Assembly: GCA_963731265.1 (NCBI GenBank)
Contig: CAVSUE010000001.1
Span: forward strand, 1,568,001 to 1,632,000
Reading direction: 5' to 3'
DNA: 64,000 nt
Source of the DNA: an uncultured Verrucomicrobiae bacterium
GTDB taxonomy: Bacteria; Chlamydiota; Chlamydiia; Chlamydiales; Rhabdochlamydiaceae
Shown here: positions 6,727 to 18,210 of the stretch, one piece after another
Layout: each line of letters starts with the position of its first letter
Numbering within the stretch: position 1 is the first letter of the stretch
Position numbers and translations under genes: made by a program
Notes under the pieces: model-generated
The model's database searches: none
Told to the model about the DNA's origin: nothing
What the model saw: the letters and a program-made list of their open reading frames with translations, nothing else

Positions 6727-7782
6727 TTAGCTTGGTAAAACCCAACTTTTTAAATAGGTTCCATTTTTTGCTTTCTCCTCCTGAAGCTTTTTGTTCTTTT
6801 GTTTCACAGAGTCTGAGAGATCACGACGGGATTCGTTAAACTTATTGCGTACGAAAGCATTTTCGTTACCTATAATCTGTAGGCAATATAAGGCTCCATT
6901 TGAAAACTGGTTTATGCCCATTGAAAGGGTGGCTTCATTGGACAAAATTTGATGAAAAAACATAGGCGACACACTTGTCTTATTCTCAAAATAGGGGATG
7001 ACTACAAAAGGCAAAAAGGTGTTTTTTGCTAAATGTTGACATTGAATAATCCCTTCATTTTGAATATCACAAATGAAATAGAGAGCGCTGCAACCCGTCT
7101 CAATTGCCTGACTTAGAAATGCTTCTTCATCGATGTCATACTCTATCGCTTCTACCTTATAAGACTGGAAGAGCTCCATGGCTTTTTGGAAATCTATTCC
7201 CAAGTTCTTTTGCTTTGAACCTACGATAGCCACTCTAGATTGTGGGGTATGTTCTTGGTAGGGAATATTTCTTAATTTACAGATCTTTTGCATGATTTGG
7301 TGATCACCCATATAGGCGATTTGTACTGCAGCGATGGCGGCTGATTTTGATTGATTGATACCCAATGTGCCGTTGGGAATTCCCGGAGGCATTTGGACCA
7401 TAGAAAGTAATGAATCAAGACCATCGAAATAACTCGTTTTAACCGGCAAAGCAATCACAGGGATGGGGGTTTCCGATGCTGTCATCCCAGGGAGATGTGC
7501 CGACCCACCGGCTGAACCGATACACACCGCAAAACCTTCTTGTGCCAAAGTTTGAGCCTTAGCCATCATTTCATGAGGCGTTCTATGGGCGGATAAAATT
7601 CTGAGCTCATAATCGATATCAAGCTGCTCCAAAATAAAAAATAGTTCTTGAATTCTAGGCAAATCTGAATCACTCCCGACACGAATCTCAATCTTGGGTG
7701 TTGAATATAAAAGATTGCAAAAAGGAAGGAGCACGAGCATGTACCTAAGGATAGTCATAGCGAATCTTCCAGGTTTAAACAT
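6727..7782 (-). CDS. purE: N5-CAIR mutase PurE with N-terminal leader and a second, degenerate PurE-like domain
   Basis: GSDSD, SAHRTP, AGGSAHLPG, PVIALPV, GLDSLLSMVQMPPGIP motifs. Confidence 0.9.
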   Translation of the reverse strand: MFKPGRFAMTILRYMLVLLPFCNLLYSTPKIEIRVGSDSDLPRIQELFFILEQLDIDYELRILSAHRTPHEMMAKAQTLAQEGFAVCIGSAGGSAHLPGMTASETPIPVIALPVKTSYFDGLDSLLSMVQMPPGIPNGTLGINQSKSAAIAAVQIAYMGDHQIMQKICKLRNIPYQEHTPQSRVAIVGSKQKNLGIDFQKAMELFQSYKVEAIEYDIDEEAFLSQAIETGCSALYFICDIQNEGIIQCQHLAKNTFLPFVVIPYFENKTSVSPMFFHQILSNEATLSMGINQFSNGALYCLQIIGNENAFVRNKFNESRRDLSDSVKQKNKKLQEEKAKNGTYLKSWVLPS

Positions 7783-7855
7783 TCACCCGGAAATTTATCC
7801 CAAGAAATAAAAATTAATCAACTTCTTAAGCTGCGCTGGTTCATTCGACAAATGG

Positions 7856-16195: not shown

Positions 16196-16209
16196 TAACC
16201 GGATGGAAG

Positions 16210-18210
16210 ATGAAAAAAATTGCTCATACTATTTTTCTGTGTTTAATGATTTTTGCCTGCGGGAAAACCTTCCCAGAAGAATTTTGGAAAGAGATAGAAG
16301 ATGAGCGGATTGTTCACGAATGCGGCGTCGCTTTGGTCAGACTCAAAAAACCCCTCGGTTTTTATATCGAGCGCTATCAGGATCCGGGTTGGGGAGTAAA
16401 AAAGCTAATGGGACTTATGGAAAAGCAGAGGAATCGAGGTCAAGATGGCGCGGGTATTGCGATAGTGAAATGTCCATTAGCTTCGGGAAAAGAGTATTTA
16501 CACCAATTTCGTTCGGCCGCCCCCAATTCCATCGACTACTTATTCGAACAAGTGATCAGAGATCTGAAGGGAACATCGTCGGACAACACACAAAATGAAA
16601 TGAGTTTGAAAGAGAGTTCCCCTTTTATTGGAGAAGCCTTTCTAGGGCATCTCCGGTACGCAACTCATTCTGGATTCGATTTGAAATATTGCCAACCTTT
16701 TGTGCGCTCGCATGGAATGCCATGCCGCCATTTTGCTTTGGCTGGAAATTTTAATATGACAAATAGCGCGGAATTGATGAACGAGCTGGAGCGCTATGGA
16801 GTTTTTCCTTCGAGCGCATCGGACACTCAGATTATTTTGGATACTTTAGCTTATCATTTAGATGCGGAATATGAACAGATTGCGCATGAAATGAAAAACA
16901 AAAACTTGTATTGCAACGCAAATGAAAAAATTCTTGAGTCATTTTTCTCAAATCAAATCGACATGGCCAAAGTTTTACAGAATGCGGCAAAGCATTGGGA
17001 TGGAGGATATCTTTTTTGTGGAATCATGGGAAATGGCGACGCATTCGTTTGTCGAGACCCAGCAGGAATTCGTCCAGGATATTACGTTTCAAATGAGGAG
17101 GTTTTTGCTGTAGCCTCTGAAAAGATCGCTTTAATGGACGTGTTTGACCTCGCTCCTGATGAAGTGTTGCCCGTCCAACCAGGCAGCATCTTAATTTTTA
17201 AGCAGGGAGTTGATCTTTTAGAGAAGTCTATATCCCCTCCTTTACCTAAAAGAGAATGCTCTTTCGAACGCATCTATTTCAGTAAAGGCAATGATCCGGA
17301 AATTTACAAAGAACGGAAAGCTTTAGGAAAAAATCTCGCTGAAAGAGTTTTTGAGGCAATCGACGGAGATTTAACGCATACCATCTTTTCTTATGTACCC
17401 AATTCCAGCATCGTTGCTTTTCAAGGACTTGTCGAAGAAATTGCTGTGCTTGGGCAAAGGAAAAATTTTGTAAAACTCCAAGACGACTTGCTGAAAACAA
17501 ATCAAAATTCAGAAGAAATTCAAAAATATTTGCAATGTCGACCTAGAATTGAATACTTAATTACGAAAAACCAGCGCATTCGCACGTTTATCAGTGCTGA
17601 CCAAATCCGCAAAACACTGGTGGCGCAACTTTATGAAGTGACAAAAGGCATTGTCACGCCAAACGACACTCTCGTCGTGATCGATGACTCGATTGTGCGG
17701 GGGACAACATTAAAAGAATCGTTGATTAAAAATCTGATTACACTAAACCCCAAAAAAATCATCGTTGTCAGTTCTGCGCCTCCAGTGATTTATCCCGATT
17801 GCTATGGCATCGACATGAGCCAATTAGGCAGGTTTATTGCTTTTCAAGCTGCAGTGAGCTTGTTGAAAGAGCGGAACAAGCTAGAAATTTTGGATAAAAT
17901 CAAGGGCGTTTGTTTAAATCAACAAAGCATTCCCCTGCCTCAAATCAAAAATTATGTGAAAGAAATTTACGATCAATTCTCCTTGAAAGAGATCGAAAAA
18001 AAAGTGGCCGAACTTGTCCTTCCATCGGATATTTCATGGAACGGATCCTTAGATGTCATTTATCAAACCATTCAGGGCTTGCACAACGCTATACCCGATT
18101 TTCAAGGAGATTGGTATTTTACCGGAGATTATCCGACGCCTGGAGGTTATAAAACCCTTAATAACAGTTACTTAAATTGGTTTGAAGGCCTCGATATTAG
18201 AAGTTATTAA
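16210..18210 (+). CDS. purF: Amidophosphoribosyltransferase with extended hydrophobic leader
   Basis: HE|CG Ntn nucleophile, RGQDGAG, GHLRYAT, SDT, RDPAGIRP, CSFERIYF, DDSIVRGTT, YGIDM, YFTGDYP. Confidence 0.93.
   Translation: MKKIAHTIFLCLMIFACGKTFPEEFWKEIEDERIVHECGVALVRLKKPLGFYIERYQDPGWGVKKLMGLMEKQRNRGQDGAGIAIVKCPLASGKEYLHQFRSAAPNSIDYLFEQVIRDLKGTSSDNTQNEMSLKESSPFIGEAFLGHLRYATHSGFDLKYCQPFVRSHGMPCRHFALAGNFNMTNSAELMNELERYGVFPSSASDTQIILDTLAYHLDAEYEQIAHEMKNKNLYCNANEKILESFFSNQIDMAKVLQNAAKHWDGGYLFCGIMGNGDAFVCRDPAGIRPGYYVSNEEVFAVASEKIALMDVFDLAPDEVLPVQPGSILIFKQGVDLLEKSISPPLPKRECSFERIYFSKGNDPEIYKERKALGKNLAERVFEAIDGDLTHTIFSYVPNSSIVAFQGLVEEIAVLGQRKNFVKLQDDLLKTNQNSEEIQKYLQCRPRIEYLITKNQRIRTFISADQIRKTLVAQLYEVTKGIVTPNDTLVVIDDSIVRGTTLKESLIKNLITLNPKKIIVVSSAPPVIYPDCYGIDMSQLGRFIAFQAAVSLLKERNKLEILDKIKGVCLNQQSIPLPQIKNYVKEIYDQFSLKEIEKKVAELVLPSDISWNGSLDVIYQTIQGLHNAIPDFQGDWYFTGDYPTPGGYKTLNNSYLNWFEGLDIRSY

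Follow-up and report, generated by a model that had tools for sequence, protein, structure and literature searches.

Predicted secretion-type signal peptides on four purine enzymes of an uncultured chlamydial bacterium and its relatives

Results

The purE–purK pair

The window (the whole 64,000-nucleotide stretch of DNA that was analysed) encodes four purine enzymes, PurE, PurK, a long-type PurF and Hpt, all of which are normally cytoplasmic. Their N-terminal leaders share a positive tip, a hydrophobic run of ∼ 12–20 residues and small residues at −3/−1, and each N-terminus quoted in the first-pass annotation was located in the sequence at its coordinates.

PurE (6727..7758, minus strand; 343 aa from ATG 7758) consists of a class I N5-CAIR mutase domain and, C-terminal to it, a degenerate PurE-like second half, a two-domain type also found in Planctomycetes and DPANN archaea. 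It scores 175.1 bits against TIGR01162 (above the cutoff of 149.6); Pfam AIRC spans residues 31–171 and matches the C-terminal half weakly (E 0.05). The best PDB match is class I 1o4v (E 4.5e-38), and E values run from 1e-26 to 4.5e-38 for class I structures versus 1.7e-7 to 3e-6 for class II (3rg8, human PAICS). The leader MTILRYMLVLLPFCNLLYS (7702..7758, minus strand) is flagged by the heuristic described below, with a site after residue 19 and predicted cleavage before TPKIEIR; the site has Leu at −3, and the hydrophobic run includes Pro and Cys. Homologs indicate ATG 7758 (MTILRY...), which is preceded by GGAAGA, as the start: the predicted proteins of nine close homologs begin there (MT/MI/MN...), and two more are predicted from further upstream with the same leader inside. 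No canonical start follows GTG at codon 17 (7734), and only ATT codons occur from there up to the core, in agreement with the first-pass annotation that no ATG, GTG or TTG lies between V17 and the core. The 19-residue leader, with substitutions, is present in 11 of 13 close homologs, the other two being N-terminally truncated fragments, and in none of 46 more distant two-domain homologs, which start MSxPVEIRVGSDSD or similar.

PurK (N5-CAIR synthetase; 7946..9253, plus strand) scores 394.3 bits against TIGR01161 (above the cutoff of 318.4) and is complete in its pre-ATP-grasp, ATP-grasp and PurK_C domains. Translation likely starts at GTG 7946, with ATG 7934 also possible; the matching position is where homologs start, with MDKIV or MNKII, and GTG 7946 gives MDKIV..., as in P0123, P0125 and P0126. 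The last canonical start, ATG at codon 50 (8003), lies 28 residues ahead of GILGGGQ. It would be favoured by a weak promoter-like match at 7928–7956, a kind of match found twice versus 1.2 times expected in shuffles. The leader MDKIVPYSFASKVGKAAFFMAILIANIADA (7946..8035, plus strand) is flagged as signal-like, with the site ADA/N followed by a Pro-rich linker that runs to GILGGGQ. An n-h-c leader with an AXA-like end occurs in all 15 closest standalone homologs (P0122–P0136) as well as in the window protein (P0121); the ends, by inspection, are ADA, ANA, AYA, ALA, AIA, AFA or TFA (16/16 AXA-like). Identity is 0.37 in the leader versus 0.79 in the core. PurK nests within eukaryote-type ADE2 sequences and is 50–58% identical to plant and algal PurK-PurE. 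The divergent purE–purK pair was found again in L001–L004 (labelled Chlamydiae or Rhabdochlamydia; L001 is labelled Verrucomicrobia). No other pur genes were matched within ∼ 10 kb in L001, and in L002 and L003, judged by ORF starts alone, none stood out.

Long-type PurF

The PurF-like glutamine-PRPP amidotransferase (16210..18210, plus strand; 666 aa; Pfam GATase_7 and GATase_6) has its start at ATG 16210, as indicated by homologs. Its score against TIGR01134 is 126.4 bits, under the 350-bit cutoff, and we assign it by sequence to a divergent long-type family of about 600–700 aa. B. subtilis PurF (1ao0) matches it at E 9e-25, its PRPP loop aligning with VIDDSIVRGTT here, and the catalytic Cys38 (codon 16321–16323) is invariant in 120 of 120 aligned sequences. 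Cys161, 281, 350, 531 and 568 are conserved in leader-bearing and leaderless groups alike; Cys350 aligns with a B. subtilis PurF cysteine and Cys531 is one residue off another, both B. subtilis residues being [4Fe-4S] ligands.

Ahead of Cys38 lie a signal-like segment, MKKIAHTIFLCLMIFACG (16210..16263, plus strand; hydropathy 3.32, n-region +2, candidate sites after residues 16 and 18), and what reads as an acidic spacer or propeptide, KTFPEEFWKEIEDERIVHE (16264..16320, plus strand), which ends directly before Cys38. The spacer WKEIEDxRIVHE is common to the nearest relatives (P0001–P0007). The last canonical start, ATG at codon 13 (16246), is 25 residues ahead of Cys38. A lipoprotein reading was tried and rejected: MIFAC/G in the window fits a permissive lipobox pattern, but P0001, at 93% identity, has VIFTC, and a Cys is missing at that position from most of the other relatives.

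Hydrophobic leaders were found in 46 of 119 PurF homologs, and seven of the 46 have a Met after the hydrophobic run as a possible alternative start. On the tree, where PurF groups with PVC bacteria, all members of a 41-row clade (support 100*) and of a 5-row clade bear leaders, and the label needs five changes versus a mean of 38 when shuffled (0/500 shuffles as low). The named leader-bearing matches come from Rhabdochlamydiaceae, Chlamydiales (2), Waddliaceae and one labelled Verrucomicrobia, and the eight named leaderless ones from Planctomycetota or Phycisphaerales. Leader identity is 0.28 versus 0.54 for the mature protein. Of the 46 hydrophobic leaders, 41 have a candidate −3/−1 site; P0093, flagged as a 42nd, reflects an artefact of start calling. 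In eight of the 46 the leader ends in A, G or S abutting the catalytic Cys (VHA/C, AVA/C, AGA/C, CHS/C), and these homologs are spread over at least four subclades. The residue at −1 to the Cys is E in the other 38, and in the 73 leaderless sequences it is E (53), H (11), Y (8) or S (1).

Hpt

Hypoxanthine phosphoribosyltransferase (Hpt; 49660..50268, minus strand, from ATG 50268; Pfam Pribosyltran) scores 155.5 bits against TIGR01203, above the cutoff of 150. Its leader MLLALLFLAFFGIPCAVHS (50212..50268, minus strand) is flagged as signal-like with the site VHS/EE. Homologs indicate ATG 50268, preceded by GGGGGA, as the start; an alternative in-frame ATG stands at codon 32 (50175). The nearest cluster representatives, P0361–P0365, all have a hydrophobic leader, and among 137 aligned cluster representatives 22 pass the threshold and three more fall just under it. 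In the tree, 25 of the 26 rows with a leader fall on one side, which has 52 rows. Since that side also has 27 leaderless rows and 14 changes are required on the tree, either the leader is labile or starts are often mis-called. The first-pass annotation had listed this leader as possible and an internal Met as its potential true start; 17 of 23 leader-bearing sequences have no Met past the hydrophobic run (six have a potential alternative start), which makes the internal start unlikely and raises the leader to likely.

Specificity and anatomy of the leaders

Window proteins were scored with one simple, hand-made n-h-c heuristic. It is crude, picking up a GT28-like protein and the first helices of membrane proteins as well, and its −3/−1 small-residue rule is loose, so that chance passes occur. 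It flags all four purine enzymes versus one of 30 other window proteins of ordinary cytoplasmic Pfam families (hypergeometric probability ∼ 1e-4, 30/278,256). The one is a false positive; thus, at the scope of the window, such leaders are not a habit of unrelated cytoplasmic enzymes, a check that the first-pass annotation had proposed. The four window leaders reach a best 8-residue hydropathy of 2.65–3.32, their n-region charge is +2 (PurF), +2 (PurK), +1 (PurE) and 0 (Hpt), and candidate −3/−1 sites are present throughout. No RR (Tat) motif precedes the hydrophobic core in these four or in the homolog leaders inspected, and the lipobox L-x-[GAS]-C is not in the PurK, PurE or Hpt leaders.

Two HAD phosphatases and a GT28 protein had also been credited with leaders. 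The phosphatases do have signal-like N-termini, and are given here as context only. One, a DUF6829 plus HAD protein (10299..12332, minus strand; Pfam DUF6829 and HAD_2; leader MNRLLALTLLLTTAIPHVNA, flagged with a site after residue 20), is conserved in L001 and is a signal-bearing phosphatase of the same gene cluster. The other, of HAD-IA type (5064..5738, minus strand; Pfam Hydrolase and HAD_2; leader MKKIFLTLFSTLLASSALIA), lies outside the range 6727..18210. The GT28-like protein (13481–14740) is flagged only at threshold (hydropathy 2.08), and we read its N-terminus, MKDLRAEYTIVILTTSASGG, as probably the strand and Gly-rich loop with which the glycosyltransferase fold begins, not as a leader.

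Across homologs the n-flank is net positive in 39/46 PurF, 15/16 PurK, 10/11 PurE and 19/23 Hpt, and the C-flank is acidic or neutral in PurF, PurE and Hpt. The median uncharged run, c-region included, is 15–19.5 residues across the leader sets, shorter than a typical membrane anchor. The leader sequences drift while the physicochemical pattern is kept, which is a signature of targeting signals. Leaders are absent from Planctomycete or fused orthologs. PurE, PurK and PurF appear to be of independent origins, yet all bear leaders.

Discussion

The analysis confirms that PurE, PurK, long-type PurF and Hpt carry N-termini predicted to be secretion-type signal peptides, conserved in relatives of each. 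Three of the four refuting conditions named in the first-pass annotation were checked, on conservation, start sites and specificity, and none spoke against its idea. For PurE, PurK and PurF the leaders proposed in the first-pass annotation are real, in that the N-termini are encoded and no canonical start would give a leaderless protein. The heuristic and the charge statistics fit a cleavable Sec signal, and the hydrophobic n-h-c anatomy is unlike described type 3 signals. We lean towards the explanation that selection has maintained the four leaders as genuine Sec-type signal peptides and that the enzymes probably act outside the cytoplasm. Here we infer Sec targeting, cleavage, final location, substrate availability and physiological purpose. 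The earlier suggestion of export (to periplasm, inclusion or host) or membrane tethering thus still appears to be the best-supported reading, with localization predicted from the leaders.

In this mechanism the enzymes would be translated from the upstream starts and sent to the Sec translocon, and signal peptidase I would cut PurE at ...LYS/TP, PurK at ...ADA/NP, PurF at ...ACG/KT and Hpt at ...VHS/EE. The mature enzymes would be extracytoplasmic, in the periplasm at least and possibly in the inclusion lumen or host. PurF would then remove its remaining 19-residue acidic propeptide by processing itself, as N-terminal-nucleophile amidotransferases usually do; in some relatives the catalytic Cys may be exposed directly by signal peptidase. 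The outer space of an intracellular chlamydia would receive host small molecules. There, Hpt could convert host hypoxanthine or guanine and PRPP to IMP or GMP, and PurF and PurK plus PurE could push the host de novo pathway past its committed step and the AIR-to-CAIR step. The resulting larger purine nucleotide supply would then be imported by the bacterium.

This mechanism has its difficulties. PurK requires ATP, and PurF and Hpt require PRPP, which is awkward for work outside the cytoplasm. PurF yields phosphoribosylamine, an unstable compound, and a PurD to take it further is not in view. The possible iron-sulfur cluster of PurF speaks against Sec, since Tat would normally be expected and the leaders have no twin-arginine motif. 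In favour of the mechanism, purC, purD and purH are reported to have been lost in the chlamydial ancestor (PMC9816063), Waddlia to have only few purine biosynthesis genes (PMC2878342) and Chlamydiales to be unable to make IMP (PMC4333871).

The leaders might instead be uncleaved signal anchors that tether the enzymes to the inner membrane and place purine steps beside nucleotide or precursor transporters, an idea that had been part of the first-pass inference and that we regard as rather unlikely. Hydrophobic runs reach 20–33 residues in some homologs, four of the 46 hydrophobic PurF leaders have no −3/−1 site (P0002, P0021, P0028, P0106; P0016 is unscored, its Cys being mis-located), and the window PurE site is weak because of the Leu at −3. 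However, the median run is short for a stable anchor, and PurK leaders regularly close with an AXA-like motif. Activity of PurF depends on a free N-terminal Cys and hence on loss of the leader, and in the eight homologs noted above the small-residue site abuts that Cys. Even a tethered enzyme is predicted to face outward, given the positive n-flanks and acidic C-flanks. Smaller still is the chance that translation starts downstream and the leaders are longest-ORF artefacts, with the hydrophobic codons untranslated or fortuitous; we consider this highly improbable. The in-frame ATG at Hpt codon 32 would yield a conventional N-terminus, MDNTELLISQDEIK, rare ATT or ATA codons lie nearer the PurE, PurK and PurF cores, and the promoter-like match favours PurK ATG 8003, though such matches are no commoner than in shuffles. 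Against this, a downstream start is impossible with canonical codons for PurE, PurK and PurF, which have none between hydrophobic run and core; PurK would keep an extension of 28 residues even from ATG 8003; in homologs down to about 50% identity the frames remain open and hydrophobic; and the sequences preceding the upstream PurE and Hpt starts are Shine-Dalgarno-like.

Alternatively, the enzymes may be cytoplasmic and the leaders propeptides, regulatory or degradation tags, retained for some purpose other than export, or poorly functional remnants, which PurF removes by itself and the others tolerate. ATP- and PRPP-dependent chemistry of this kind is cytoplasmic everywhere else, an iron-sulfur cluster bound by the conserved PurF-long cysteines would fit Sec export poorly, the Tat motif is absent, PurF-type enzymes self-remove propeptides, and leaderless Hpt relatives are numerous in the same clade. 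We nevertheless think this reading quite unlikely. The same n-h-c pattern stands on four enzymes of different fold and evolutionary origin and is retained under sequence drift, as in targeting signals, while 29 of 30 other cytoplasmic-type window proteins have no such leader. PurK, PurE and Hpt have no self-processing chemistry. In PurF, loss of the spacer coincides exactly with replacement of the E before the Cys by A, G or S, which signal peptidase I needs and which would be unexpected for self-processing.

Sec-type export, the explanation we prefer, can be extended tentatively, and with considerable doubt, to an extracytoplasmic purine module of environmental chlamydiae. Sec-exported PurF, PurK, PurE and Hpt, located in periplasm, inclusion or host, would act on host ATP, PRPP, glutamine, AIR and purine bases and drive or complement the host's committed and carboxylation steps, in a lineage without the remaining pur genes, and signal peptidase I would repeatedly have taken over exposure of the Ntn Cys. 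In the textbook view, chlamydiae are nucleotide parasites that simply take up host nucleotides. If the module exists, host–symbiont metabolic integration would be more active than import alone, and the orphan purine genes repeatedly noted in chlamydial genomes would have a simple explanation. The idea of secreted housekeeping enzymes would then cover nucleotides as well as glycogen, and environmental lineages as well as pathogens, and an N-terminal-nucleophile enzyme would have a new maturation route, via signal peptidase. We found no published description of purine enzymes with such export signals.

Comparison with known systems

The PurF described here resembles the B. subtilis type in that the Cys is not the first residue and is exposed by removal of an N-terminal peptide, with an acidic residue before the Cys in most members. 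Known PurF propeptides are short and hydrophilic (11 residues in B. subtilis, 1ao0 and 1gph; typically eight, MSDxIGHE, in leaderless Planctomycete homologs), whereas the leaders here are 19–75 residues long with a signal-peptide core, and in eight relatives a signal-peptidase-type site replaces the acidic junction. PurK belongs to the same family as plant and algal ADE2 (PurK-PurE), which likewise has an N-terminal targeting extension, annotated there as chloroplastic. The eukaryotic extension, however, is long, hydroxylated, basic and transit-peptide-like and sits on a fused protein; chlamydial PurK is standalone with a short, bacterial-type n-h-c signal.

Among chlamydial systems, periplasmic cHtrA is Sec-dependent and reported in the host cytosol (PMC3107777). 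Its path, by signal peptide to the periplasm with onward release to the inclusion or host cytosol, is a possible route for the purine enzymes. Proteins of the cHtrA type are proteases of expected extracytoplasmic role, whereas those described here are ATP- or PRPP-dependent biosynthetic enzymes. The housekeeping glycogen enzymes of C. trachomatis are reported to have gained type 3 secretion signals and to function in the lumen of the inclusion (PMC4829429, PMC9251005), the phosphoglucomutase CT295 being one such secreted enzyme (PMC9251005; preprint 10.1101/2020.10.11.335026). In both cases chlamydial housekeeping enzymes would have gained an N-terminal secretion signal, and part of central metabolism would proceed outside the bacterium on host substrates. 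The C. trachomatis system uses type 3 signals, concerns glycogen and belongs to an animal pathogen, whereas the predicted signals here are Sec-like and cleavable, concern purine synthesis and salvage, and belong to uncultured environmental chlamydiae.

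Leader-bearing purine enzymes in the window

PurE (6727-7758, minus strand), PurK (7946-9253, plus strand), PurF (16210-18210, plus strand) and Hpt (49660-50268, minus strand) each begin with a leader, an N-terminal signal-peptide-like segment with a charged tip, a hydrophobic core and a small-residue end. Every N-terminus quoted for them in the first-pass annotation is present in the sequence. PurE, PurK and Hpt exceed the NCBIfam equivalog cutoffs (175 versus 150, 394 versus 318 and 155.5 versus 150 bits respectively). The PurF-like protein reaches 126 bits, below the cutoff of 350, and therefore belongs to a divergent long-type family (PurF-long). 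Its predicted nucleophile, Cys38, is invariant in all 120 aligned sequences and its PRPP loop aligns with that of B. subtilis PurF (1ao0, E 9e-25). PurE is a class I enzyme (1o4v match, E 4.5e-38; class II enzymes ∼ 1e-7), which fits its PurK partner. The second half of PurE (6727-7260) gives only a weak AIR-carboxylase (AIRC) match (E 0.05) and lacks the catalytic motifs; a two-domain architecture (295-345 aa) is common to many homologs.

Leaders in the window were assigned with a crude, hand-made n-h-c rule, which requires 10 or more consecutive uncharged residues with a best 8-residue hydropathy of 2.0 or higher, an n-flank whose charge is not negative and small residues at -3/-1 near the end of this run. 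The rule flags 17 of 54 window ORFs examined: all four purine enzymes, two HAD phosphatases that had also been credited with leaders, six proteins without a Pfam family, one thioredoxin-like protein, three membrane proteins by way of their first helices (ExoD, one MFS, YitT) and, at threshold only, the GT28-like protein. We judge the leader earlier ascribed to the latter not to be real because its N-terminus resembles part of the protein's own fold (first strand, glycine loop). By this rule 4/4 purine enzymes are flagged versus 1/30 window proteins of ordinary cytoplasmic families (hypergeometric probability ∼ 1e-4), among them AccB/C, EF-P, NusA, S1, IF2, Rpe, SurE, RmlA-like, SDR, TetR and GntR proteins. 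Within the window, leaders are thus not equally common on unrelated cytoplasmic enzymes.

Gene neighbourhood

The window (44% G+C) is bacterial and chlamydial in content, and the closest relatives of its proteins stem from records titled Chlamydiae, Rhabdochlamydia/Rhabdochlamydiaceae, Waddliaceae or Chlamydiales. The region 6727-18210 holds the divergent purE (minus)-purK (plus) pair, a MIP-family channel, a DUF6829-HAD phosphatase, a DUF1398 protein with a small protein (secreted-looking), a GT28-like glycosyltransferase, a nucleoside-deoxyribosyltransferase-like protein, an S6PP-type HAD phosphatase and the PurF-like amidotransferase (666 aa), followed by yqeY; hpt is found at 49660-50268. 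A Pfam scan of the 64-kb window found no purine-pathway gene beyond these, and none turned up in the flanks of the related locus L001 when 24 window proteins served as tblastn queries. For three other related loci (L002, L003 and L005) the comparison covered ORF lists and N-termini only. The divergent pair recurs in L001-L004. Three further PurK/PurE cluster pairs come from equal-sized contigs (31239, 4569 and 63850 bp, the first being L003's own), which suggests that the members of each pair share a contig.

L001 is syntenic with window positions 292-19606 at 88-93% protein identity, and is titled Verrucomicrobia despite its chlamydia-like content. Its purE, purK, purF and yqeY genes and both leader-bearing HAD phosphatases are intact, the GT28-like and S6PP genes are present as fragments only and the MIP channel is unmatched. 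A promoter scan of the purE-purK spacer returned 2 sites, no clear excess over the 1.2 expected. The 273-nt spacer 5' of purF, much shorter in L001, contains a G+C-rich segment (16040-16180, up to 62% versus 44% overall). The spacer has no second copy within the window. Rfam gave no match to it, whether gathering thresholds were applied or E values up to 1 allowed, and a riboswitch or other known RNA was dropped on this ground.

Elsewhere in the window, a trehalose-synthase-like gene (24384-26832) is apparently split, its N-terminal TreT piece (24384-24809) being separated from a glycosyltransferase-1 piece (26134-26832) by an IS-type integrase gene (25114-25962), and looks disrupted by an insertion sequence. 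Two adjacent ORFs of 278 and 194 aa (37021-38462), each matching the MFS transporter family, resemble a single transporter gene interrupted by a frameshift or stop. A GlgB-like branching enzyme (44038-46761, 907 aa) has ∼ 260 residues ahead of CBM48 that are unmatched in Pfam except for a weak GlgB_N hit, and is without a hydrophobic leader by the n-h-c rule. A 254-aa protein (58110-58874) carries a eukaryote-type F-box domain, a host-mimicking type of domain met in intracellular bacteria.

Conservation of the leaders

The PurK leader is kept in the window protein and in all 15 of its closest standalone homologs (69-89% identity). It comprises a Lys-rich tip, 12-15 hydrophobic residues and an end of ADA, ANA, AYA, ALA, AIA, AFA or TFA, and is followed by a variable linker and the invariant (K/T)(V/T)LG(I/V)LGGGQ. 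GTG 7946 is the likely start (an ATG at 7934 is the alternative) because several homologs begin MDKIV or MNKII there. Next among the matches come PurK-PurE fusions and ADE2 proteins of algae or plants, with either no such leader or long transit-peptide-like extensions. In a quick IQ-TREE tree the leader-bearing group falls inside eukaryote-type ADE2 (green algae, plants, chytrid), nearest to metagenomic PurK-PurE fusions and to a leaderless fusion in L005 (2147-4051), a bacterial MAG locus. This suggests gene transfer of purK (proteins P0121-P0145, P0121 being the window PurK) between eukaryotes and the chlamydial lineage, in either direction given the long outgroup branches and the SH-aLRT-only support. 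Inheritance of the leader from a eukaryotic transit peptide was rejected, since it does not resemble the N-termini of the algal proteins and the related L005 fusion is leaderless.

The PurE leader recurs in a varied 19-residue form (e.g. MNLLKYLAVLLPLCNYVYS, MTIFTHLFALFLLCNPLFS) in 11 of 13 close homologs (78-91% identity), the other two being N-terminally truncated fragments; S is always its last residue and (T/A/S)PKIE follows. None of the 46 more distant homologs among the matches listed has it. These are mostly two-domain proteins of 295-345 aa, most of which begin no more than 12 residues from GSDSD, and the few that are named belong to Planctomycetaceae, Nanoarchaeota, Aenigmatarchaeota and Bacteroidota. 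For Hpt we aligned 137 of the best 150 50%-cluster representatives, namely those of 150-300 aa. The leader is kept in relatives, 22 of the 137 lying over the hydropathy threshold and 3 more just under; one further match, P0481, looks like an artefact. The nearest five representatives are all leader-bearing. The Hpt tree is poorly resolved, but one 52-row side (support 93) holds all except one of the 26 leader rows, together with 27 leaderless rows, some visibly truncated.

The best 120 PurF matches, less one fragment (P0120), gave 119 sequences, 48 of which reach a hydropathy of 2.0 or more over 10 residues ahead of the Cys. Two of these (P0093, P0109) have a normal short propeptide just ahead of the Cys and were therefore discounted as upstream-extended ORFs, leaving 46/119. 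In a FastTree tree of the mature part only, a 41-row clade that includes the window protein (local support 100) is wholly leader-bearing, as are a separate 5-row clade (100) and P0102; the other 71 rows begin MSDxIGHECG or similar. The leader label changes 5 times on this tree versus a mean of 38 after shuffling (0/500 shuffles as low). Named leader-bearing sequences are from Rhabdochlamydiaceae, two Chlamydiales, Waddliaceae and one MAG labelled Verrucomicrobia, a label that may carry little weight because L001, syntenic with the window, bears the same title; the named leaderless ones are 8 Planctomycetota or Phycisphaerales. PurF-long has conserved cysteines at C161, C281, C350, C531 and C568, two of which match the positions of B. 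subtilis PurF cysteines that we take to be iron-sulfur ligands. The window Cys270 is Cys in 72% of leader-bearing versus 3% of leaderless PurF-long sequences, and the Ser137 position shows the reverse pattern (4% versus 58%).

Nature of the leaders

Our preferred reading, with moderate confidence, is Sec export of the four enzymes with cleavage by signal peptidase I. It is very improbable that the leaders are start-site artefacts. When all in-frame ATG, GTG and TTG codons were listed for each gene, PurE had none beyond codon 17, as claimed in the first-pass annotation, the last in PurK lay at codon 50, 28 residues short of the core, and the last in PurF at codon 13, 25 residues ahead of Cys38; a mis-called start is thereby ruled out for these three. 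Hpt alone has a conventional alternative, since the internal Met suggested earlier as its true start does exist (ATG, codon 32), but the upstream start is likelier because 17 of 23 leader-bearing Hpt proteins lack a Met downstream of their hydrophobic run. A net positive n-flank is seen in 39/46 PurF, 15/16 PurK, 10/11 PurE and 19/23 Hpt leaders. The 15 residues after the run are acidic in PurF and Hpt (mean charge -1.9 and -1.1) and neutral in PurE, so by the positive-inside rule the enzyme body would face outside. The hydrophobic run could also act as an uncleaved membrane tether, which we regard as unlikely; its median uncharged length, c-region counted, is 15-19.5 residues and suits a signal peptide better than an anchor. 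A lipoprotein was rejected (the lipobox is not conserved in PurF relatives and is absent from PurK, PurE and Hpt), as was Tat export, with no RR motif ahead of the hydrophobic core in the window or listed homolog leaders.

It is also rather improbable that the enzymes are cytoplasmic with non-export propeptides. The strongest clue comes from PurF, which as an N-terminal-nucleophile enzyme requires a free Cys at its first position. Of the 46 leader-bearing forms, 38 have an acidic spacer ending ...HE ahead of this Cys, like the leaderless forms. In the other eight (P0019, P0022, P0026, P0028, P0029, P0030, P0113 and P0117), spread over at least four subclades, the spacer is gone and the leader, ending AGA, VHA, PQA, NHG, SYG, AVA, CHS or VSG, abuts the Cys. 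The -1 residue is A, G or S in 8/8 of these versus 1/73 leaderless sequences (E 53, H 11, Y 8, S 1). This would be the expected outcome if signal peptidase I cuts the leaders, having replaced self-processing several times. The leaders diverge in sequence far more quickly than the mature proteins do, with pairwise identities averaging 0.37 versus 0.79 in PurK and 0.28 versus 0.54 in PurF. The four enzymes have no common history, PurF grouping with PVC bacteria, PurK with eukaryote-type ADE2 and PurE with the two-domain type, and the gain of similar leaders by enzymes of separate origin argues that the leaders are functional. Several points weigh against export, however: export presupposes that ATP and PRPP are available outside the cytoplasm, the PurF product phosphoribosylamine is unstable, an iron-sulfur cluster on the conserved PurF-long cysteines would fit Sec export poorly and the Hpt leader is patchy inside its clade.

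Possible role and relation to known systems

If exported, the enzymes would reach at least the periplasm, a space that in an intracellular chlamydia host metabolites have to traverse prior to import. Hpt could there convert host bases and PRPP to IMP or GMP, PurF could drive the committed step and PurK with PurE the AIR-to-CAIR step of a pathway whose remaining steps the bacterium probably lacks. One study infers that the last chlamydial common ancestor had lost purC, purD and purH (PMC9816063), and another states that Chlamydiales are unable to produce IMP (PMC4333871). Onward release beyond the periplasm would have reported precedents (PMC3107777).

The leaders are conserved, specific, unexpected and readily testable. 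In the literature covered (mostly non-subscription journals), signal peptides on bacterial PurF, PurK, PurE or Hpt are nowhere described. Papers on a Bdellovibrio amidophosphoribosyltransferase (PMC12546842) and on an effector screen with Waddlia/C. trachomatis (PMC7143554, no matching term) proved irrelevant. Eukaryotic purine enzymes with targeting peptides, such as the algal ADE2 homologs, are known already. Closest among known systems are the glycogen enzymes of C. trachomatis, which are reported to have gained type 3 secretion signals and to be active in the inclusion lumen (PMC4829429, PMC9251005). The chlamydial purine enzymes would follow the same logic, but with a different signal type, in a different pathway and in a different lineage.
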